Assembly: GCA_963677485.1 (NCBI GenBank)
Contig: OY781964.1
Coordinates: forward strand, 1,344,001-1,408,000
Direction: 5' to 3'
DNA length: 64,000 nucleotides
From: Armatimonadota bacterium
GTDB lineage: Bacteria; Armatimonadota; HRBIN16
Shown piece by piece: positions 31,795 to 40,723 of the stretch; position 1 is the stretch's first letter, and each line of letters opens with the position of its first letter. The notes below the pieces were generated by a model. The model made no database searches and was not told the DNA's origin. It saw only the letters and a list, made by a program, of their open reading frames with translations. Both the position numbers and the translations under genes were made by a program.

Positions 31795-34521
31795 TTGGCT
31801 AAACATCTATACATGTTTCTCATCGCAGTCATGCTATTTGCTGCAACGTCGGCATTCGCGGCTCTACCCACATACGAGTTCGCTTCACAAGCCGATGTCA
31901 ATACCTGGACGGGCCAGCACAGCATCAGCTCGAAGCTCTATGTGAATGGCAGTATGGAGCTCACCCTCTCTGGGGATGACCCCTACATCACCGGTCCGGC
32001 TCGTAATCTGGGCGATAAACCGGTGTTTGCCACCATCCGCATATACAGCGAAGTGGGCGGACCTGCGGAGTTCTTCTGGTACACCGCCACGCAGGGTGTG
32101 CAGGCAGGGCATGAGGCCGCTTTTGTGGTGCCCGCGGGTCAGTGGGCGGAGGTTCTAGTTAATCTGCCCGCACTTGGCAGCAGCGGCGGCTTGAGACTTG
32201 ATCCCCCTGGCAGCAGCGGCAAATGCATGGTGAACTGGGTTCACTTCGAAGAGCAAGTCGTCGTCAACCCTCCCGCCTGGACAGGCCCAACGATGAGCAC
32301 ACCAGCCGCCGACTGGCTGACGGTGCGCAGCGGAAACACTTCACTGACCCATGACCCCACCCATTTCGGCCGGTTCTATGTCAATGTCAATGATGTGCAG
32401 ACGGCCGCAGGCTGGGATCAGCCCTGGCTCTGCTTCCGCTCCACAACTGGTGCCCCGACATGGCTCAACCTGCTGGAAGGCGCGCACACCGTCCAAGCCA
32501 TCACCAACGGCATCCAAAGTAAACTGATGGCCTTGGATACCGACGGGGCGATTTGGACATTTACCAACACCTTCACCCCGGGCGCGGTATCAGGCACCAT
32601 CGCCTGTGCCAGCACCATCCGAGTAAACCAGACACGCCGCGCATGGTTTGTGCCCTGGATGGTGATGTTCCCCAAAGCGCGCGAGCGCGCGATGTTCCCA
32701 GGCCTGGAGTATATGGACCCACTGGACACCTCCAGCAGCAAAGATGACATTGAAACCTGGGACTACCAGCGGCGCGCACCAGATCCTGAGAAGATGACCT
32801 TCCCCATGCTGGCGATGCAGGCACAGAGCCGATGGATCGGTCTCTCCTGGGTCGACAACAGCAGATGCCAGCCGATTTTTGACAGTCCAGACCGAATTTT
32901 CAGCTCTAACCTGAACTTCATGGGAGTCTTAGCCAGCAACTTCAACTCCAATCAACGCGACCCTGGCAGCCTGCTACCGGCTTTCGCCGAAGAGTTTGCC
33001 GCCAACACGGACATCACGCTGAACATGAACATCTCCGGTGGCAGCGGGCCCAACATGGTGCCGGCGATACAAACTTACGTGAAGCTGTATGGCATACCCC
33101 AGTTACCCAACCCAGGCCGCGACATGCAGAACTACGTCACATGGGCAGCCGGAGGCTGGTTGGACAGCAACATCCGCAGCGGCGATCTTTACCGGCACGC
33201 CACCTGGCCAGGTGCGAACAACTGGGCCCCTGCACCCGTTGGCGATGTGCCCTGGATGGAGCGTTGGCTGGCCGAGAACACCACCAACCCCACCCTCAAA
33301 ACACGGCTGCAGTCTGCTTCCGAAGGAGCAGCCGCACAGGTGATCGCAGCCGGAAGTGTGAACTTCCGTGGGGTCGCGCATGTGCAGTATCCCATCGCCT
33401 CACTTATCTTCACCGATGGGCTCAGCGGACCTGATATCGCGCTGGGCAGCGGCAACGGCCAGTATGCGCAGTTTACACCTGAGGGCACCGTGCTTTACAA
33501 CCCACCCGCCACTGGCAACGACCTTTCCCGAACGCACTGGGCGAAACATGCCAATGGCATGACTGCCGCGGTTTTGAAGAACGTGTGGGACGGGGTGCTC
33601 TACAGCGCCGACCCGACCCTGGGACAAAAGGCACTTACCATCACGGACATGCTGTCACAATATGACAATGAGGCCCCTCGTGGTGCGCAGACCTGGGAGG
33701 TACCGCTGCACACCCCAGACATTCTGGGCTCCGCTTACCTGGTCTACAGTAACCTGGCGGCGTATGAATACACCGGCAAGAAGCAGTACCTCGATAAGGC
33801 GATCGACTGGGCCTGGACAGGTGTGCCGTTCGTCTACCTGGTCAACCCGACGGCTGGCGCGATCGGCCCCTACGCCACCATTCCGGTGTTTGGCAGCACG
33901 CAGTTCACCTTGATGAACTGGATGGGTGTTCCGGTTCAGTGGTGTGGCATGGTGTATGCCGATGCCATCCGGCGTCTGCAGCGTTTCGACCCCACCGGAC
34001 CCTGGGAGATGCTCTGGAAGGGTATCACCATCTCAGGTATCCAGCAAAGCTTCCCCACCGGGCCCGACGCCACTCTACAGGGCACCTTGCCGGACTCGGT
34101 CAACCTGCGAGCCCAATCCCGCAACGGTGTGGCCATCAACCCCGGCACGGTGATGAGCTGCGCCACCAACTACTACCTGGGGATTCCGGCCTACGACTAC
34201 AGGATATACCGCAGTCTTGGGCTCATGGTGCATCTGCCGGGGCAATGGCTGCCTGGTGAGACCGTGATGAAGGATGAACTCACCTTCCGTGCGCAGCTCT
34301 GGACAGACGCGAAGATCATGGTGGTCGGGCTAAAGAGGTTCGGCATGGTGATGGTTGATGGCGTGGTGGTGCCTGTCGGACAGGGAGCCGCCTACGATCC
34401 AAATGGTCACCTGTTTGTAAACGCCACCAAAGGCATGCATACCATCAACATAAAACTCAATGCACAAACCACCCCGACAAACCCCGCGGGTGGGATATCA
34501 GTGCTCCAACGGAACAAATAA
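31795..34521 (+). CDS. Large secreted hypothetical protein, possibly carbohydrate-active
   Basis: 908-aa ORF, TTG after AGGAGG, signal peptide ending AFA, Trp/Tyr-rich. Confidence 0.75.
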   Translation: MAKHLYMFLIAVMLFAATSAFAALPTYEFASQADVNTWTGQHSISSKLYVNGSMELTLSGDDPYITGPARNLGDKPVFATIRIYSEVGGPAEFFWYTATQGVQAGHEAAFVVPAGQWAEVLVNLPALGSSGGLRLDPPGSSGKCMVNWVHFEEQVVVNPPAWTGPTMSTPAADWLTVRSGNTSLTHDPTHFGRFYVNVNDVQTAAGWDQPWLCFRSTTGAPTWLNLLEGAHTVQAITNGIQSKLMALDTDGAIWTFTNTFTPGAVSGTIACASTIRVNQTRRAWFVPWMVMFPKARERAMFPGLEYMDPLDTSSSKDDIETWDYQRRAPDPEKMTFPMLAMQAQSRWIGLSWVDNSRCQPIFDSPDRIFSSNLNFMGVLASNFNSNQRDPGSLLPAFAEEFAANTDITLNMNISGGSGPNMVPAIQTYVKLYGIPQLPNPGRDMQNYVTWAAGGWLDSNIRSGDLYRHATWPGANNWAPAPVGDVPWMERWLAENTTNPTLKTRLQSASEGAAAQVIAAGSVNFRGVAHVQYPIASLIFTDGLSGPDIALGSGNGQYAQFTPEGTVLYNPPATGNDLSRTHWAKHANGMTAAVLKNVWDGVLYSADPTLGQKALTITDMLSQYDNEAPRGAQTWEVPLHTPDILGSAYLVYSNLAAYEYTGKKQYLDKAIDWAWTGVPFVYLVNPTAGAIGPYATIPVFGSTQFTLMNWMGVPVQWCGMVYADAIRRLQRFDPTGPWEMLWKGITISGIQQSFPTGPDATLQGTLPDSVNLRAQSRNGVAINPGTVMSCATNYYLGIPAYDYRIYRSLGLMVHLPGQWLPGETVMKDELTFRAQLWTDAKIMVVGLKRFGMVMVDGVVVPVGQGAAYDPNGHLFVNATKGMHTINIKLNAQTTPTNPAGGISVLQRNK

Positions 34522-34564
34522 AGCTAGACGAACACCAGGCGATGTGGTAAAATATCAACTGCAT

Positions 34565-34638
34565 TGCCTGGTCGTTCAACGGCAGGACAACGGACTTTGA
34601 CTCCGTTAATCGTGGTTCGAATCCACGCCGGGCAACCA
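34565..34638 (+). tRNA. tRNA-Gln(TTG)
   Basis: Acceptor stem TGCCTGG/CCGGGCA, anticodon loop CTTTGAC, GGTTCGAATCC, encoded CCA. Confidence 0.97.
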
Positions 34639-34909
34639 TTTCAGCCCCTCACACAGCTTCCCACTAGCCCTCTATATAAACCGATAATTCGTCATAAACC
34701 TTGTACATAACTAGTCGTAGGGGCGTCCCTTGTATGCTACGACAGTGTCTATTACAGTATGGGTTGACTTGAACTCAAGAGCAGTGCTTCAAAATAAGCA
34801 ATCGCCTGCACATTCGTTATCTAATATACTTTTATACACCACTATATATTGCATTGGCTCATTTTATGAGGGTATAATGAATGAACATTACGCTTCAAGT
34901 GAGGGTGCC

Positions 34910-35425
34910 ATGACTGATCAGACAGTTCCGTTTGAAACCACAATTCTTGAATTCGGCCCGCAGCGCATCATGGGGATGAGCGTGGTTACCGCCAACGCAA
35001 ATGGCGAGTGTGCTGCACTCTGGGGTAACGAAGGCGGTTTTGCCAACCGTATGAATGAAGTCAAACCGCCTAAAACAGGCGCACCCTGTTTTGGCGTCTG
35101 CCGGTGCGTTCCTGGCATCAGCGACGGCCGGTTTGAATACATCGCCGCGGTCAGCGCCAGTGCAGACGCCGTGTTACCTCAAGGCATGGTGGAACTCACC
35201 CTGCCAAAGGCGCAGTATCTGTGTATCACCGTGCCTGGTCTTGAACAGGTCGGTGCGGCTTGGAACTACATGGGCCAGTGGTGTACCGAGAACCCTGAGT
35301 GGCGCGGGTATTGCGATCAAAACGGCTGCGAATGCACCGAATACCCCGCGTTTGAATACTACACCTCGGAGTTCTTCACCACCAAAAAGCTCTATGTGTA
35401 TGTACCGATCCGTCCGAAGGAATAG
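34910..35425 (+). CDS. GyrI-like small-molecule-binding protein
   Basis: ALW, FEYIAAV, LPQGM, FEYY, YVPI pattern. Confidence 0.75.
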   Translation: MTDQTVPFETTILEFGPQRIMGMSVVTANANGECAALWGNEGGFANRMNEVKPPKTGAPCFGVCRCVPGISDGRFEYIAAVSASADAVLPQGMVELTLPKAQYLCITVPGLEQVGAAWNYMGQWCTENPEWRGYCDQNGCECTEYPAFEYYTSEFFTTKKLYVYVPIRPKE

Positions 35426-35449
35426 GGGTTGGGTTACACGACGGGAAAT

Positions 35450-35785
35450 GTAATCCACAGATTTCGCAGATTACGCAGATAAGATAATAACCGCACCGAT
35501 TATCTCCTAACTGCGACGGTTTGTAGGGGCGGGGTCTCCCCGCCCACACCAATTGTGATCCGTCCGATCCGTCTCATCCGTCCGATGCCCGGAATGTCTG
35601 AACCACGGATTACGCGGATGACACGGATGGGTTCGGATGGGAGGGGAATTGCTAAACATTTCGTTCCCCATCCGTGTTCATTCGTGTTCATCCGCGGTTC
35701 AAATGCGCCCCTAACGGGACGAGTAGGACAGGGATTTACGGTTCCCCATCCGTGTTCATTCGTGTTCATTCGTGGTTCAGAAAAT
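35450..35785. repeat. Mosaic of short-period repeats and a REP-like hairpin
   Basis: CCCATCCGTGTTCATTCGTGTTCAT twice, GTAGGGGCGGGGTCTCCCCGCCC, ATCCGTCCG units. Confidence 0.7.
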
Positions 35786-35876
35786 GCCCTGCCCAAAATT
35801 CGCTTCAGGCGCAATATGGCAGAACCCGGTATACTATAGGATGTAGTGATATCTACGGAGGCATCGAGCGCAACAT

Positions 35877-36146
35877 ATGGCATTTCTTATTTACGTCATT
35901 TTTCAAGTACTCACATGGATGATCATCGTTCATGTGGTGATCTCTTGGATAACGCAAACGGGTGCCGCGCGGATATCTCCCTATCACCCGTTGGTCAGGA
36001 CCTTGAACAACATCGTTGACCCGATGCTGGCCCCGATCCGCAAATTGGTGAACCCAAGGGCCATGGGAGGTCTGGATATCTCTCCCATGATCGCCATTAT
36101 CATCCTCACCATCATTGAGAGTATCATCGTCAAAGTGATCCGATAG
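35877..36146 (+). CDS. yggT: YggT/YlmG family membrane protein
   Basis: VDPMLAPIRK..GGLDISPMI. Confidence 0.92.
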   Translation: MAFLIYVIFQVLTWMIIVHVVISWITQTGAARISPYHPLVRTLNNIVDPMLAPIRKLVNPRAMGGLDISPMIAIIILTIIESIIVKVIR

Positions 36147-36147
36147 A

Positions 36148-36630
36148 ATGAGCCACTCTCAACGACTAACCCCCATAGACATAGCTCACAAAGAGCTGCC
36201 AACTACACCTTTTGGTGGTTATAACAGAACCACCGTCGACCAATTTCTGGATGATCTGGGCAATGACTACGAGCAGATTATCCTGGAAAATGCCAAGCTG
36301 AAAGAACAGACGGCTGCGCTGCAATCAGAACTAGCCCGATACCGCGAAATGGAACAAACTCTGCGGGAGGCGCTTGTGCTGGCGCAAAGAACCGCGGATG
36401 AAACACGGGCAGCAGCGCATAAAGAGGCGGAGATCATTCTGCAAAATGCAGACCTCCGCGCAGCACAACAGATCAAGGACCAACAACAACAAATTGAGCA
36501 ACTCAAAAGCATCAAACAAAAGATAGCTTTCGAGCTCCGGGCGCATATGAACGTGATCCAACAGTGGCTCGATGCCACCAACGACACGCCATCGGCAGAC
36601 GCCCCACCAGATGTCCAACCTCAAAATTAA
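36148..36630 (+). CDS. divIVA: DivIVA domain protein
   Basis: LTPIDI..GYNRTTVDQFLD followed by a coiled coil. Confidence 0.9.
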   Translation: MSHSQRLTPIDIAHKELPTTPFGGYNRTTVDQFLDDLGNDYEQIILENAKLKEQTAALQSELARYREMEQTLREALVLAQRTADETRAAAHKEAEIILQNADLRAAQQIKDQQQQIEQLKSIKQKIAFELRAHMNVIQQWLDATNDTPSADAPPDVQPQN

Positions 36631-36889
36631 AATACGCGTCACAGCGCGGGCGGGAAGAAACGCCATCGACCGATGGGACCCGCAGACAGATACCCTGCAC
36701 CTGAGAGTGGCAGCAGTGCCCTCGGACGGACAGGCGAATGAGGCCATCAGGCAATTGCTTGCCAAACAGTTGAGCGTCCCGAAAAGCCGCATCACCTTAG
36801 TTGGTGGTGCCACGAGTCGCAACAAAACTTACGAAATAGAGGACATGGAGCAACTACCAGAAAAGATACTGGGGCTCCAAATTGAATGA
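36611..36889 (+). CDS. yggU: DUF167 (YggU) family protein
   Basis: VAAVPSDGQAN..LA..L.VPKS..GATSRNK. Confidence 0.88.
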   Translation: MSNLKIKIRVTARAGRNAIDRWDPQTDTLHLRVAAVPSDGQANEAIRQLLAKQLSVPKSRITLVGGATSRNKTYEIEDMEQLPEKILGLQIE

Positions 36890-39282
36890 CAGAACAAAAC
36901 AGCACACCAGAACCCGCTGATAATATCAGCCAGCCGGAAACTCCGGAGACGAATGAACAACCAGAAATGGTTGAAGCAACCCCAGAGCAAGCGAATACAG
37001 ATATCCAAAATGACGAAAACATAATCGACGCAGAAGATACGTCCGCTGATCAAGATATGTCCGATGATTCCGACTTGTCTGAATTATCTGGCAAGTCTGA
37101 TGAATCTGACCTGACCGACTTATCTGACAAGTCTGATGAATCTGAACTGACCGACTTATCCGACTTGTCTGAGACGCCTGACAGCGTAGATGCATCCACG
37201 GGACAGGTCTACGATACCCCTAAACTCAACCAGCGACAGCTACACCTAATGGAGCGCGTAGAACAGCGCATTCTCATCGGTGGGGCAGAGCCGCCGCATG
37301 TCAGCATCATGTCCAACTCCGTGGGAGCACCCCCTGATGCTATCCGGGCGATGGCCGCCCTCCTGGTCAAACGCGGCAAGATTTATATCATGGCCGACGA
37401 TCTCTACATCCACGCTCTCAGTTTCGAAGAGGTGGAAAGCCAGATCCGCGGTTATATCCAGAAAAATGGATCTGTCACAGTCAGCCAGTTGCGAGACTTT
37501 TTGGGCACAAGCCGACGGTTTGCCCATCCGCTGCTGATGCTGTTTGAAGTACGCAATCCAAACTCGAATCCCCGTCCCATGGGCGACAGCTATGCACCAG
37601 ACGACGAGAATGATGATGATGGTCCGATGCCCACATGGGAAGAATACCAGCAGTCACTGCTCTCCTCGCGCGACCGTGTCCGCATGGAGCGAACCGCAGA
37701 GCGTTCGAGCGGAGGCTATGGCCGTCCTCGAATGAATGCTGATGGCCCATCGGCAGGCGGCGGACGCAGCTTTGATCGTCCTCGTGACGGCGGCGGTGCC
37801 CGACCCAGCTTCAACAGAGACGATCGTCCACAAAGAAGCTTTGACGGACCACCAAGAGATGGCGCACGGCCAGCGGGCGGCGGTTACAACCGCGAAGGCG
37901 GCGGCGACCGACCCAGTTTCAACAGGGACGACCGACCACGAAGAAGCTTCGACGGACCACCAAGAGAAGGCGGGCGGCCCCGCGACGCAAGCTATAACCG
38001 TGAAGAAGGACGTCCAGCAAGAGAAGACGGACAGCCAGCAGGCGGCGATCGGCCCAGCTTCAATCGGGACGACCGGCCACGCAGAAGCTTTGACGGACCG
38101 CCAAGAGAAGGCGGACGGCCAGCAGGCGGCGGATACAACCGCGAAGGCGGCGGCGACCGACCCAGTTTCAATAGGGACGACCGACCACGCAGAAGCTTTG
38201 ACGGACCGCCAAGAGAAGGCGGGCGGCCAGCAGGCGGTGGTTACAACCGCGAAGGTTGCGGCGACCGACCCAGTTTCAATAGAGACGACCGACCACGCAG
38301 AAGCTTTGACGGGCCACCAAGAGATGGTGCACGTCCTAGCGGAGGCGGGTATGGCGGACGACCTGCAGGCGGCGGTTACAACCGTGACGGCGGCGGCGAC
38401 CGACCCAGTTTCAATAGAGACGACCGACCACGCAGAAGCTTTGACGGACCACCAAGAGATGGTGCGCGTCCTAGCGGTGGCGGGTATGGCGGGCGACCAG
38501 CAGGCGGCGGCTACAACCGTGACGGCGGCGGCGACCGGCCCAGTTTCAACAGGGACGACCGACCACGCAGAAGCTTTGACGGACCACCAAGAGATGGTGC
38601 GCGTCCAAGCGGAGGCGGATATGGCGGACGACCAGCAGGCGGCGGTTACAACCGTGACGGTGGCGGCGACCGGCCCAGTTTCAACAGGGACGACCGACCG
38701 CGCAGAAGCTTTGACGGACCACCAAGAGATGGTGCACGTCCTAGCGGTGGCGGGTATGGTGGGCGACCTGCAGGCGGCGGTTACAACCGTGACGGCGGCG
38801 GCGACCGACCCAGCTTCAATAGAGATGACCGACCGCGCAGAAGCTTCGACGGACCACCAAGAGATGGTGCACGTCCAAGTGGAGGCGGCTATGGTGGACG
38901 ACCAGCAGGCGGCGGTTACAACCGTGACGGCGGCGGCGATCGGCCCAGCTTCAATCGGGACGACCGACCACGCAGAAGCTTTGACGGACCACCAAGAGAA
39001 GGTGGACGTCCTAGTGGCGGCGGCGGTTACAGTGGTGGCGGACGTCCCAGTGGCGGCGGTGGTTACAGCGGTGGCGGACGTCCCAGTGGCGGCGGCGGCT
39101 ATAGTGGTGGCGGACGCCCAAGTGGCGGCGGCTACAGCGGTGGCGGACGCCCAGGTGGCGGCGGCGGTTACAACCGCGATGGCGGCGGCAGGCCGTCAGG
39201 TGGGGGCTTTAATCGAGGCCCGCGCCCTGATGACCGCGGCGGTCCGGATCGTAGGCCAGGCGGCCCTCGTAAACCAGAGTAG
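36886..39282 (+). CDS. SelB C-terminal winged-helix-like protein with an acidic N-terminus and RGG-rich tandem-repeat tail
   Basis: VTVSQLRDFLGTSRRFAHPLL resembles SelB WH4; ATGA-coupled to yggU; 10 RPSFNRDDRP repeats. Confidence 0.75.
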   Translation: MTEQNSTPEPADNISQPETPETNEQPEMVEATPEQANTDIQNDENIIDAEDTSADQDMSDDSDLSELSGKSDESDLTDLSDKSDESELTDLSDLSETPDSVDASTGQVYDTPKLNQRQLHLMERVEQRILIGGAEPPHVSIMSNSVGAPPDAIRAMAALLVKRGKIYIMADDLYIHALSFEEVESQIRGYIQKNGSVTVSQLRDFLGTSRRFAHPLLMLFEVRNPNSNPRPMGDSYAPDDENDDDGPMPTWEEYQQSLLSSRDRVRMERTAERSSGGYGRPRMNADGPSAGGGRSFDRPRDGGGARPSFNRDDRPQRSFDGPPRDGARPAGGGYNREGGGDRPSFNRDDRPRRSFDGPPREGGRPRDASYNREEGRPAREDGQPAGGDRPSFNRDDRPRRSFDGPPREGGRPAGGGYNREGGGDRPSFNRDDRPRRSFDGPPREGGRPAGGGYNREGCGDRPSFNRDDRPRRSFDGPPRDGARPSGGGYGGRPAGGGYNRDGGGDRPSFNRDDRPRRSFDGPPRDGARPSGGGYGGRPAGGGYNRDGGGDRPSFNRDDRPRRSFDGPPRDGARPSGGGYGGRPAGGGYNRDGGGDRPSFNRDDRPRRSFDGPPRDGARPSGGGYGGRPAGGGYNRDGGGDRPSFNRDDRPRRSFDGPPRDGARPSGGGYGGRPAGGGYNRDGGGDRPSFNRDDRPRRSFDGPPREGGRPSGGGGYSGGGRPSGGGGYSGGGRPSGGGGYSGGGRPSGGGYSGGGRPGGGGGYNRDGGGRPSGGGFNRGPRPDDRGGPDRRPGGPRKPE
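37804..39010 (+). repeat. Coding tandem repeat, 10 units
   Basis: Units start at 37804, 37912, 38053, 38161, 38269, 38404, 38539, 38674, 38809 and 38944. Confidence 0.95.
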
Positions 39283-40072
39283 CCTCGCCAGTTAACGTCA
39301 GTGTGCCATCGGGCATACGCTCGACAACGGCCTCACCACCCTTACTGCGAACCCGCACTAAGGGACCGGTGAGGCCGTTGTCCATAGAGACCACAGCCGC
39401 GGCACAGGCTCCTGTTCCGCAACCCAGCGTTTCGCATGCCCCTCGCTCCCAGATGCGCACCTGAACATCGGTGTCGCTCAGCCGTTTGACACACATCAGG
39501 CTGGTTTTTTGGGGGAATAAGGGGTGATTTTCCACCGCCGGCCCTATTTCATAGAACAACTCATCATCCGGCAGCTCATCACAAAACCAGACGGCATGGG
39601 TAGAGCCAGTGGACACGGCATGAAGCGTCAAATCGTGCGTTCCCACTTGGATGTGCAGTGGGGCCGCTGTCTCTGCCAGATATGGCACTAAAGCGGGCTC
39701 GTAGCGTGCGACACCCATATCTACCGTCACACGGCCATCATCGTGTATCACGGCCTTCTTCGGACCATCACTCGTCTCGATGGTCAACTGGCTGGCCTGC
39801 ACCAATCCATGTTGTCTTGCCCAAGCCGCGGTGCATCTCATGCCGTTGCCGCAGATATCCTCGGTGCCATCGGGGTTGTGCATCTTCATGAACACGCTGT
39901 CAGGTGTGGAGCCGCGTGATATCACCAGCAGCCCGTCGCTGCCCACTCCATAGTGCCGGTTACAGGCATATAGCGCGAAAACCGATGTTTCCAGCCCAGC
40001 GAGCTCCTCGGCGGCGCAAACCACGAAGTCGTTACCTGTCCCCACCATCTTGCTGAAACGCAGTTCCATCAT
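39209..40072 (-). CDS. dapF: Diaminopimelate epimerase
   Basis: GTGNDF, CGNG, WERG..ETLGCGTGA. Confidence 0.95.
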   Translation of the reverse strand: MMELRFSKMVGTGNDFVVCAAEELAGLETSVFALYACNRHYGVGSDGLLVISRGSTPDSVFMKMHNPDGTEDICGNGMRCTAAWARQHGLVQASQLTIETSDGPKKAVIHDDGRVTVDMGVARYEPALVPYLAETAAPLHIQVGTHDLTLHAVSTGSTHAVWFCDELPDDELFYEIGPAVENHPLFPQKTSLMCVKRLSDTDVQVRIWERGACETLGCGTGACAAAVVSMDNGLTGPLVRVRSKGGEAVVERMPDGTLTLTGEATLVYEGRLAYDPDRRGHQGAGLD

Positions 40073-40081
40073 ATACCCCTG

Positions 40082-40723
40082 TTAGTTCAGAAATCCCGCC
40101 CGACGCAAACTCTCTTCACTGACACTGTTGGATGTGCTGCCACCAAGCAGTCGCTCCACATAACGGCCAAGCACATCGGTCTCAATGTTCACAGAACTAC
40201 CGACACTACGTTCAGCCAACACCGTCTCCCGCCAGGTCGTGGGGATAATAGCAACCGTAAATCCAAAAGTTGTCAGATCAGCCACGGTCAGGCTCACTCC
40301 ATCTATGCAAATGGAGCCTTTCGGCACCACATAACGCAAGGCGTCCGGCTCGATGTCTACACTCAAGCGTACGGATACACCTTCATCCATCAGCCGTCGG
40401 ACCGTGCCAATTGCGTCCACGTGCCCCTGCACAATGTGCCCGCCCATGGGCTCACCTAGTCTCACGGCATCTTCCAGGTTCACACGGTCGCCCGCCTTTA
40501 GCAGTCCCAGTGTAGTGCGCCGCATGGACTCCGGCACCGCATCAAAGCTGAGGCTATCTGTGGTGATGTCGGTGACCGTTAGACATGCCCCGTTGATGGC
40601 GATGGAATCACCCAGCTTGGCCAGATTTCGCAACTTCTCACTGCTGATCGTCACCCGCATCCCTGCCTGAGCACTGGTGATCGCCTTCACACGGCCAACC
40701 TCTTCAATGATACCTGTAAACAC
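40082..40723 (-). CDS. ribE: Riboflavin synthase (alpha chain)
   Basis: MFTGIIEE, GDSIAINGACLTV, GGHIVQGHVD. Confidence 0.97.
   Translation of the reverse strand: MFTGIIEEVGRVKAITSAQAGMRVTISSEKLRNLAKLGDSIAINGACLTVTDITTDSLSFDAVPESMRRTTLGLLKAGDRVNLEDAVRLGEPMGGHIVQGHVDAIGTVRRLMDEGVSVRLSVDIEPDALRYVVPKGSICIDGVSLTVADLTTFGFTVAIIPTTWRETVLAERSVGSSVNIETDVLGRYVERLLGGSTSNSVSEESLRRAGFLN

Follow-up and report, generated by a model that had tools for sequence, protein, structure and literature searches.

Gene X, a 798 aa ORF on the forward strand (36886..39282) of the 64 000 nt window analysed here, encodes a stand-alone copy of the C-terminal WH3-WH4 module of SelB, set between an acidic head and a long repeat tail. 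The origin of this arrangement, by loss of selenocysteine decoding and retention of the module within a yggT-divIVA-yggU operon, is well supported. The explanation we prefer for its present role, held tentatively and given somewhat less than an even chance, is that the core is an exapted SECIS-binding module which probably still binds structured RNA and is rendered multivalent by the head and tail.

The folded core comprises a WH3-like winged helix (aa 116-176; 37231..37413, forward strand), modelled by AlphaFold as three helices and a beta hairpin with block-mean pLDDT above 90, and a WH4-like domain without a wing (aa 177-223; 37414..37554, forward strand), also of three helices, in which the SelB R-D...S-R motif is kept with a K to R replacement. 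The Pfam SelB-wing_3 family (PF09107, gathering cut-off 23.2 bits) matches aa 190-217 with 29.0 bits (E 7.5e-7), although only over model positions 2-29 of 47, the wing part being absent. In phmmer comparison with the PDB, aa 111-220 align with WH3-WH4 (residues 132-240) in the C-terminal fragment of Moorella SelB, with E-values of 4.3e-8 (2PLY), 1.6e-7 (1LVA) and 7.8e-7 (1WSU). AlphaFold, run on a 39-row alignment, gave block-mean pLDDT of at least 92 for aa 110-219, and the best 11 Foldseek matches in the PDB were all SelB WH3-4 chains, most of them crystallized with SECIS RNA (E 5.6e-7 to 3e-4; rmsd 1.9-2.8 Å over 104-114 columns). The homology and fold of the core are far beyond chance. 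A preceding reading of this DNA (the sequence-only reading) had proposed a SelB WH3-WH4-like core and called for comparison of an AlphaFold model with SelB; the phmmer, AlphaFold and Foldseek results all bear it out, with the SelB WH3-4 fold recovered at an rmsd of ~2 Å. The absence of GTPase motifs, also claimed there, agrees with the domain searches, in which Pfam returned only SelB-wing_3 for X, and NCBIfam nothing. Of the four winged helices of SelB, X has WH3-WH4 only, with the acidic head preceding them, and the PDB alignment begins at residue 132 of a 258 aa SelB C-terminal fragment.

Winged helices are also found among DNA-binding proteins, and after SelB the Foldseek matches are MntR, BusR and GntR-type regulators (E 0.02-0.1). 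X might on this basis be a nucleoid-associated protein or a division-site regulator, its basic, Arg-rich tail acting as a non-specific DNA clamp. However, these regulators superimpose with rmsd values of 9-22 Å and TM scores of 0.2-0.3, against ~2 Å for SelB WH3-4, and the sequence homology is specific to SelB; a DNA-binding role is improbable.

In the parts of the literature available, SelB WHD3-4 are described as the SECIS-binding domains (PMC4605307; bioRxiv 10.1101/2025.02.04.636165); a residue list of SelB-SECIS RNA contacts was not found in the accessible literature. The sequence-only reading had described the module as a SelB-type RNA-binding wing, and of this the WH3-WH4 homology stands but the WH4 beta-hairpin wing itself is missing: AlphaFold builds this domain from three helices with no hairpin, and the SelB T-R-R-x-G-D-x-R-V-L block has no counterpart in the alignment. 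The wing columns lost in X are among those most conserved in SelB (T in 34/34 sequences, R in 34/34, G in 29/34, D in 32/34 and R in 33/34). In addition, three SelB-invariant residues are replaced, K (32/34) by R, E (32/34) by M and D (33/34) by E, while the conserved columns R203, D204, S209, R210, P215 and L217 are kept. Loss of the wing together with these replacements means that the RNA surface of the core may be altered. The preferred explanation would have the module bind structured RNA, no longer SECIS, through the helix face of WH4 that carries the kept R-D...S-R and the K to R position.

The same loss of the wing and of three invariant residues would also suit a protein adaptor, in which WH3-WH4 no longer binds nucleic acid and docks on YggU, DivIVA or YggT, with the head and tail serving as spacer or for crowding at the division site or pole. 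An adaptor is further favoured by the coupling of the module to yggU in two genera (an ATGA junction here and a 26 nt overlap in genome G004) and by strong conservation of the linker, whose predicted helix is without a SelB counterpart. Against it, the R-D...S-R stretch, the most conserved in SelB, is kept in all of the wingless forms, even those encoded far from divIVA and yggU, and genomes of the sister genus g2 have yggT, divIVA and yggU yet no X. We regard the adaptor as rather unlikely, if clearly the strongest of the rivals.

The genome that carries X (G000; one contig, 97% complete) lacks recognizable selenocysteine machinery. SelA was not found; no SelB match (TIGR00475) exceeded the cut-off, the best reaching 180.9 against 242.25 bits and covering the GTPase part only; the best SelD match scored 54.1 against 125 bits; and there was no tRNA-Sec among 59 tRNA genes. 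The genome has 10 TIGR00475 matches, all of them away from the X locus, and X is the sole match to PF09107. The search for selABC and a full-length selB that the sequence-only reading had suggested thus found none of them, selA, selB and tRNA-Sec being absent and selD as well. Since the genome is without selA, selB, selD and tRNA-Sec, X has no SECIS to read, and a module kept under selection after loss of the machinery must therefore do another job.

Within the family (18 genomes), SelA is present in 12/13 genomes of genus g2 and in none of those of g1, to which the X genome belongs (0/3), or of g3 (0/2). The g2 genomes encode full SelB as well as SelA, and their matches to the X core are the C-terminal ends of SelB frames of ~640 aa, with 38-47% identity; outside g1, this g2 SelB WH3-4 is the closest relative of the core (34-42% identity). 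In the tree it groups with the g1 and g3 forms with support of 85/64, which lends weak backing to the suggestion that X may descend from the family's own SelB.

Gene X is the fourth gene of a forward-strand cluster that begins with yggT (35877..36146), encoding a YGGT family membrane protein (PF02325, 69.2 bits), and continues with divIVA (36148..36630; 160 aa; PF05103, 114.8 bits) and yggU/DUF167 (36611..36889; 92 aa from the likely start; PF02594, 79.5 bits). The junctions are tight: divIVA starts 1 nt past the yggT stop, and the start codon of X overlaps the yggU stop as ATGA, so that the translational coupling to yggT-divIVA-yggU proposed earlier was upheld. The longest yggU ORF runs from 36572, but alignment with the G001, G002, G004 and G011 proteins makes 36611 the most likely start. 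On the reverse strand, dapF (39209..40072; PF01678, 151.1 bits) is convergent to X, and its longest ORF overlaps the 3' end of X by 74 nt; the arrangement in G001 is identical. The gene order is common to G000, G001 and G004, and to G002 as far as its contig end, and yggT lies upstream of divIVA in all five of the other family genomes checked (G001, G002, G004, G005 and G011). With genes on one strand, overlapping or abutting frames and a conserved neighbourhood, the locus is a ylm-type yggT-divIVA cluster.

There is no terminator-like site on the forward strand between 35400 and 39600, and a promoter/terminator scan gave no more sites than shuffled sequence. RNA-library contigs, which record presence in RNA libraries and do not prove transcription, extend over divIVA, yggU and both head and core of X in 4/4 libraries examined, and one of them spans the yggU/X junction; the uncovered part at 37054-37185 carries no evidential weight. 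RNA folds at the four operon junctions were no better than shuffles (z -1.69, +1.20, -0.88 and +0.17), and the Rfam matches for 34400-40200, a tRNA and a palindrome scoring below threshold, were not relevant; neither source provided a candidate RNA ligand of X. No functional lead was found in the accessible parts of the DUF167/YggU literature.

The position of X invites comparison with ribosome-associated quality control. In the part of the source available, 69% of Armatimonadota genomes are reported to have RqcH without RqcP or YlmH, with the suggestion that another factor may serve, and ylmH is placed in the ylm (divIVA) operon (PMC11317155). X could be a ribosome or translation factor that re-uses SelB contacts near the mRNA entrance and, in one version, the missing partner of RqcH, in the operon place taken by YlmH in Firmicutes. 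RqcH is present in the genome (NFACT_N, 292.9 bits), whose four S4-domain frames (219, 258, 433 and 338 aa) all lie away from X; the 258 and 338 aa frames read as pseudouridine synthases from their sequences, and no small S4 protein of the RqcP/YlmH type was seen, these two of the four being the ones inspected. X itself, however, has no S4 domain (PF01479) and lies after yggU, not ahead of divIVA; X is also absent from the g2 genomes of its family, and nothing links WH3-4 to the 50S subunit or P-site tRNA. We consider such a role marginally less probable still than DNA binding.

Outside the core, X is built of low-complexity blocks. The head (aa 1-108; 36886..37209, forward strand) is rich in Asp, Ser and Glu, devoid of aromatic residues and of net charge -32, matching the acidic N-terminus described in the sequence-only reading. 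It contains 36 nt tandem repeats at 37059-37172. Conservation is seen in its first ~38 aa; the remainder is variable, with dN/dS of 0.415 against the ortholog in G001. The head sequence is different again in G002 and in RNA-library contigs from relatives, which have loose ends at 37046 and 37203. Following the core, the linker (aa 224-290; 37555..37755, forward strand) is strongly conserved (dN/dS 0.016, computed over aa 223-290) and includes a helix that both AlphaFold models predict, at low confidence, for aa 251-271 (37636-37698).

The repeat tail (aa 291-798, 508 aa; 37756..39279, forward strand) has a net charge of +33 and consists of 29% G, 20% R, 14% P and 11% D, with 22 F, 19 Y and no I, L, V or M. 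It contains 10 copies of an S-F-N-R-D-D-R-P...R-S-F-D-G-P-P-R unit followed by G-G-Y/G-G-R stretches; the 41 aromatic residues are spaced 9-22 residues apart, with a median of 11. At the DNA level, Tandem Repeats Finder identified a 135 nt repeat in 6.0 copies with 91% matches (38218..39023, forward strand), which encodes most of the tail, and further arrays at 37789-38005, 38041-38324 (108 nt) and 39004-39172 (36 nt). RGG/RG-motif proteins carry clustered RGG or RG repeats, such as di- and tri-RGG boxes. In the tail of X, Arg occurs mainly as RP (44), DR (22) and GR (16), with two RG pairs and a single RGG; it is an Arg/Gly-rich region and not an RGG box. Thus the claim of more than 500 aa of Arg, Gly, Asp and aromatic repeats holds, and that of an RGG-type tail does not.

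Pfam gave no match in the tail, and a Protein Atlas query with aa 223-798 returned no usable match. A search of the genome for a second copy yielded two weak low-complexity matches and no real paralog; one of these is a simple G-G-R-R-A repeat frame. AlphaFold on the whole protein (2-row alignment) left aa 1-115 and 270-798 without secondary structure, with a mean pLDDT of 35.7; this model is uninformative on disorder because pLDDT was low in the core as well.

Comparison with the 811 aa ortholog of identical architecture in G001 indicates that X is a working, lineage-restricted protein. Overall dN/dS is 0.083; in the core it is 0.016 (43 synonymous and 4 non-synonymous changes) and in the tail 0.042, at a pS of 0.43, a value that argues against G001 and G000 being the same organism. 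The gene is present in 3/3 g1 genomes, the G002 copy being cut by a contig end after 96 aa. As X holds only a piece of SelB, and simple repeat DNA can produce long open frames (an alternative frame of 519 aa is open at 37736-39295), the gene might be taken for a decaying, functionless selB remnant or an artefact of assembly or annotation. This is already contradicted by selection and synteny, namely by dN/dS of 0.016-0.042 at a pS of ~0.43 in the annotated frame, identical architecture in a second complete genome and synteny kept in genus g3; RNA-library contigs also lie over X in 4/4 runs examined, and we give a remnant or artefact next to no probability. A broken selB fragment was the outcome that the sequence-only reading had set against itself, and the absent Sec genes, the 811 aa ortholog and the dN/dS of 0.016-0.042 outside the head all argue otherwise.

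Only one genus, g1, has the long head and tail. An exhaustive search of representatives gave 767 matches; among the best 150 of these, only P0001, a 204 aa fragment with 94% identity, has the module near its N-terminus. P0121, with a 96 aa extension after the module, was read as having a mis-called end. A word-index protein search with aa 100-240 in the near length class produced 514 candidates, none at E ≤ 1e-3; a scan of genome contigs with the core found the G001 record only, and a scan of metagenome contigs with core plus linker found no relative. No description of such a SelB-module protein was found in the literature searched, in line with the suggestion that X was undescribed.

Shorter stand-alone relatives of the core occur elsewhere. 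In the g3 genome G004, yggT-divIVA-yggU is followed by a gene for a 135 aa WH3-4 protein without a tail, its start overlapping yggU by 26 nt; P0055 is a relative with 81% identity to it. This form shares with X its operon place, the lack of a wing, an S/T-R-R motif and a Sec-less genome, and differs in having no head, conserved linker or repeat tail; the cores are 31-36% identical, and its PF09107 score (20.9 against 23.2 bits) is under the Pfam cut-off. A clade of the g1 and g3 forms was not rejected (AU p 0.139).

In addition, small (~115-150 aa) wingless stand-alone WH3-4 proteins are found in other Sec-less Armatimonadota, namely in the genomes G349, G354 and G399 of family f47, in P0052 and at 30/36 metagenome loci. 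Like X, these are stand-alone and wingless and carry the K to R replacement, with the WH3 block G-A-P-P-D-A-x-R-A-M kept and a helix motif of the type S-S-R-R-Y-A-A-A-A-L-R-W-L; unlike X, they have neither head nor tail. They occur in genomes without SelA or SelB, and SelA is absent from all five checked genomes with stand-alone SelB C-terminal pieces elsewhere. None of the 36 metagenome loci has divIVA, yggU or yggT within 3 kb, and the recurrent neighbours of the f47-type forms are AhpC/TSA, a PntA 4TM piece and a Cys/Met PLP enzyme. Forcing these forms into a single clade with g1/g3 costs 17.1 lnL units (AU p 0.032, for a group defined after the tree had been inspected), and the tree suggests that they are probably an offshoot of SelB independent of the g1/g3 forms. 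That the g3 and f47-type proteins lack a head and tail indicates that these are not needed for the job of the core.

Taken as a sequence of events, the exapted RNA-binding module would have arisen when the lineage gave up selenocysteine decoding and the WH3 and wingless WH4 domains survived as a gene of their own directly behind yggU. In g1, an acidic head (-32) would then have been added, and tandem duplication of 108 and 135 nt units would have generated the 508 aa Arg/Gly/Pro/Asp tail with its even Phe/Tyr spacing. Head and tail could provide weak multivalent interactions with RNA and between copies of the protein, making X a block polyampholyte that clusters RNA, and any tie to cell division or the cell pole would come from co-expression with DivIVA, YggT and YggU. 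Of the condensate scaffold, perhaps localised through DivIVA, that the sequence-only reading had put forward, condensate formation is a possibility suggested by composition, and X may also contact DivIVA or YggU. In a bolder form, WH3-WH4 may have been kept repeatedly as a free reader of hairpin RNA after Sec loss, probably on two or more separate occasions, each with the wing lost and K replaced by R. In g1 it may collect specific RNAs, or ribosomes loaded with them, in a condensate placed by DivIVA, YggT and YggU. We regard this as speculative and rather unlikely; if true, X would represent a novel type of bacterial RNA-organizing scaffold.

Should the core still recognize an RNA hairpin, the mRNA-binding arm of SelB would be a transferable module for RNA recognition that persists after the Sec system is lost, and its target in Sec-less cells becomes a question; if it is instead a protein adaptor, it would point to a new partner for YggU/DUF167 and YggT, both of them poorly understood proteins. 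The three genera form a testable set, with full SelB in g2, a 135 aa stand-alone form in g3 and a giant form with head and tail in g1. The g1 protein also offers an unusually clean natural design for the study of bacterial phase separation, with one small folded binder between acidic and basic aromatic blocks of about equal and opposite charge, in a divIVA operon, where spatial organization is to be expected.

Among known systems, the closest is the C-terminal module of SelB itself (Moorella thermoacetica 1WSU, 2UWM, 2PLY and 1LVA; E. coli 2PJP), which shares the tandem winged-helix fold with X at an rmsd of 1.9-2.3 Å over 111-114 columns in the five best matches. X lacks the GTPase domains D1-3, WH1-2 and the WH4 wing of SelB, and adds the 108 aa acidic head and ~575 aa of linker plus tail. 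YlmH, encoded in the ylm/divIVA operon of Firmicutes according to the part of the source available (PMC11317155), resembles X as an RNA-binding-type module in a yggT(ylmG)-divIVA neighbourhood. The two folds, S4 and winged helix, are unrelated, however, and the operon positions differ. The FUS/hnRNPA-type and bacterial RNase E C-terminal domains are Arg/Gly- and aromatic-rich low-complexity regions of RNA-binding, condensate-forming proteins. The tail of X is likewise of low complexity, free of aliphatic residues and high in Arg and Gly, with evenly spaced aromatic stickers, but it differs from them in its single RGG, its 14% Pro and 11% Asp and its lack of sequence homology to either.

Gene X (36886–39282, + strand) is an uninterrupted ORF of 798 aa and the final gene of a tight same-strand row. 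The row comprises yggT (35877–36146; PF02325, 69.2 bits), divIVA (36148–36630; PF05103, 114.8 bits), which starts 1 nt past the yggT stop, and yggU/DUF167 (36611–36889; PF02594, 79.5 bits), a 92-aa frame whose start was taken from alignment with relatives. The start codon of X overlaps the yggU stop in an ATGA, and no terminator-like sites are found on the + strand between 35400 and 39600. The longest frame of the convergent dapF gene (− strand) reaches 74 nt into the 3′ end of X (39209–39282), an arrangement common to G001, a second genome of the same genus (g1). In G038, which belongs to another family, dapF lies two genes upstream of a full-length selB on the same strand (L034:2425–7799); its proximity to selB there and to X in the window may be a chance coincidence. 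Upstream of yggT lies a REP-like element (35597–35781), the source of spurious ORFs with repeated peptide words. It combines a 14-nt inverted repeat, a 39-nt direct repeat (copies at 35663 and 35741) and a long palindromic hairpin (35610–35697) to which miRNA-precursor models match, with sub-threshold scores, on either strand. The genes for a 908-aa secreted-type protein and a GyrI-like protein flank a tRNA gene (34565–34635; Rfam RF00005, 58.7 bits).

The sole folded part of protein X is a core at aa ~110–223, for which comparison with SelB, the selenocysteine elongation factor, reveals homology to winged helices 3 and 4 (WH3-4). In Pfam, PF09107 (SelB-wing_3) scores 29.0 bits against a cut-off of 23.2, and the match spans only model positions 2–29 of 47. 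A phmmer search of all PDB sequences aligns X aa 111–220 with residues 132–240 of the Moorella thermoacetica SelB C-terminal fragment (E 4.3e-8 for 2PLY, 1.6e-7 for 1LVA and 7.8e-7 for 1WSU; 0.0024 for the Escherichia coli structure 2PJP). The AlphaFold model, from a 39-row alignment, has a block-mean pLDDT of at least 92 over aa 110–219, and contains a full WH3 (three helices and a hairpin) and a WH4 of three helices from which the hairpin is absent. When this model is compared with the PDB by Foldseek, the best 11 matches are all SelB WH3-4 chains, most of them crystallized with SECIS RNA (E 5.6e-7 to 3e-4, rmsd 1.9–2.8 Å, 104–114 columns), in agreement with the SelB-like core predicted by the sequence-only reading. 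That reading had described an RNA-binding wing of SelB type; the WH3-4 homology holds by sequence and by fold, and it is the WH4 wing itself that is missing. The next Foldseek matches, all with E of at least 0.02, are DNA-binding winged-helix regulators, one further SelB fragment and full-length SelB; that X is a DNA binder is very unlikely. Passages in two papers describe WHD3-4 as the SECIS-binding part of SelB (PMC4605307; bioRxiv 10.1101/2025.02.04.636165); neither lists which residues touch the RNA.

Within the same alignment, a C-terminal T-R-R-x-G-D-x-R-V-L block is common to the 34 SelB-type rows (T and the second R in 34/34) and missing in X and four other stand-alone rows. Where SelB has an invariant Lys following S-R (32/34), each of the five wingless rows has Arg, and X has Met in place of a SelB Glu (32/34); the R-D...S-R columns are retained.

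Around the core, X consists of an Asp/Ser/Glu-rich head (aa 1–108; net charge −32, zero aromatics, partly 36-nt repeats), a linker (aa 224–290) with a low-confidence predicted helix at aa 251–271, and a long tail (aa 291–798; G 29%, R 20%, P 14%, D 11%; net charge +33). The tail lacks Ile, Leu, Val and Met entirely and carries 22 Phe and 19 Tyr at a spacing of 9–22 residues (median 11). Its DNA is made up of 108-nt and 135-nt tandem repeats, the largest array being 135 nt × 6.0 (38218–39023). The Arg/Gly/Asp/aromatic repeats noted earlier are borne out, although a strict RGG occurs only once in this Arg/Gly-rich tail. Head and tail, whose charges are opposite and almost equal, are found in one genus only.

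Comparison of X with its 811-aa ortholog in G001, at a pS of ~0.43, gives dN/dS values of 0.016 for the core (43 synonymous versus 4 non-synonymous changes), 0.016 for the linker, 0.042 for the tail (151 versus 27) and 0.415 for the head, of which the first ~38 aa are conserved. X is a working gene under strong purifying selection. The low dN/dS at high pS also settles in which frame the repeats are read, as against an alternative open frame at 37736–39295. The concern that X might be a broken selB fragment lacking full-length homologs falls away with the G001 ortholog and the core dN/dS, and a dead remnant is scarcely conceivable. RNA-library contigs from all four metatranscriptome libraries (four studies) cover divIVA, yggU, head and core with 90–99% likeness, and one bridges the yggU/X junction (36668–37046); as the sequence of close relatives, they are consistent with, and no proof of, expression of X. 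In two runs, such contigs have one extra A after 36867, at the yggU 3′ end, which would alter the YggU C-terminus just ahead of the X start. This C-terminus differs in G001 too.

The sequence-only reading had also raised the question of whether selABC and a full-length selB accompany X. In this genome (one contig, 5.22 Mb, 97% complete), X is the only PF09107 match. SelA is not found, the best TIGR00475 (SelB) matches stop at 180.9 bits, short of the 242.25 cut-off, and are confined to the GTPase part, nothing exceeds the SelD cut-off, and ARAGORN identifies no tRNA-Sec among 59 tRNA genes. The genome is without a selenocysteine system.

The family comprises 18 genomes in our collection, in genera g1 (n=3), g2 (n=13) and g3 (n=2). 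SelA is present in 12 of the 13 g2 genomes and in none of g1 or g3. In g2, the core is matched (38–47% identity) by the extreme C-terminus of ~640-aa frames that represent full SelB and are distant from divIVA. The g2 gene order is yggT-divIVA, an Rce1-like membrane protein, yggU and trpE, and X is absent. The Rce1-like protein (CAAX protease family) has 481–493 aa (L040:5525–6970 in G011; L041:5895–7376 in G005). The absence of X from g2 speaks against a ribosome- or RQC-linked role. In favour of one, RqcH is encoded outside the window (G000:C1:92763–94037; NFACT_N, 292.9 bits), and no small RqcP/YlmH/Hsp15-type S4 protein is seen among the four S4 frames of the genome (219, 258, 338 and 433 aa), of which the two inspected, those of 258 and 338 aa, read as pseudouridine synthases; nothing ties WH3-4 to the 50S subunit, and such a role is highly improbable.

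In G001 the neighbours of X are as in the window, and in G002, the third g1 genome, the acidic head, immediately after yggU, is cut off at 96 aa by the contig end. In the g3 genome G004, yggT-divIVA-yggU leads, through overlapping starts, into the gene for a 135-aa protein consisting of WH3 and a wingless WH4; the whole locus is missing from the second g3 assembly. The place behind yggU in the divIVA operon is fixed in two genera. A role as a protein adaptor for YggU/DivIVA is conceivable, if unlikely. In the module ML tree, g1, g3 and g2 sequences group together with weak support (85/64), and a g1+g3 clade is not rejected by the AU test (p 0.139). The simplest history, which we consider very probable when taken alone, is that the g1/g3 ancestor lost Sec decoding and the SECIS-binding SelB end stayed as a gene behind yggU; the tree by itself is no proof of this. 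Head, linker and tail were presumably added later, in g1 only.

Core matches occur in 214 of 401 sampled genomes of the phylum, and among the 150 rows listed nearly all lie in ~600–900-aa frames, i.e. SelB. In five genomes examined as exceptions, neither SelA nor SelB over the cut-off is found. In another family, f47, three genomes encode wingless proteins of ~115–125 aa (L042:4767–5138 in G349, L043:5057–5404 in G354 and L044:4771–5184 in G399). The wing is kept in a 176-aa form in G075 (L045:5174–5704) and in a 261-aa form in G136 (L047:4576–5361), which has further winged-helix-like sequence at its N-terminus, and SelA/SelB are found in neither genome; G200 (L048:3029–3814) encodes a protein as in G136, the SelA/SelB checks covering G136 and G075. 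A profile of the wingless forms recovers 36 metagenome loci, comprising 30 small wingless f47-type proteins with S/T-S-R-R, three SelB ends and three partial or unrelated matches; no divIVA, yggU or yggT lies within 3 kb in these 36. Recurrent neighbours of the f47-type forms are a downstream AhpC/TSA peroxiredoxin, a PntA 4TM piece and a Cys/Met PLP enzyme. This f47-type family (L042–L044 and metagenome L053–L082; ~115–150 aa), with an S-S-R-R-Y-A-A-A-A-L-R-W-L-type helix, is present in Sec-less Armatimonadota and at the 30 metagenome loci, and Pfam names only part of it. When the f47-type row is constrained to group with those of g1/g3, the log-likelihood falls by 17.1 units (AU p 0.032, weakened in that the group was named after the tree was seen). 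This suggests that the two stand-alone kinds arose separately; if so, wing loss and the K-to-R change occurred in parallel.

On the tentatively preferred reading, X may be an RNA-reading protein of the division operon made multivalent by its tail. The R-D...S-R-R helix face kept by the module would still let it recognize structured RNA, many weak RNA and self contacts could come from the aromatic/Arg tail, and the acidic head may balance or gate these. Co-translation with YggU, DivIVA and YggT would set X in a cell division or pole context. Condensate formation in cells is possible, if doubtful.

Full-text searches of the main text of openly available papers returned none on a stand-alone SelB WH3-4 protein, and the words 'orphan' and 'Armatimonad' are absent from a 2026 review of the prokaryotic selenoproteome (PMC13188914). 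Protein X presents a familiar RNA-binding domain in a form judged to be new: orphaned, wingless, fused to IDRs and embedded in a division operon.
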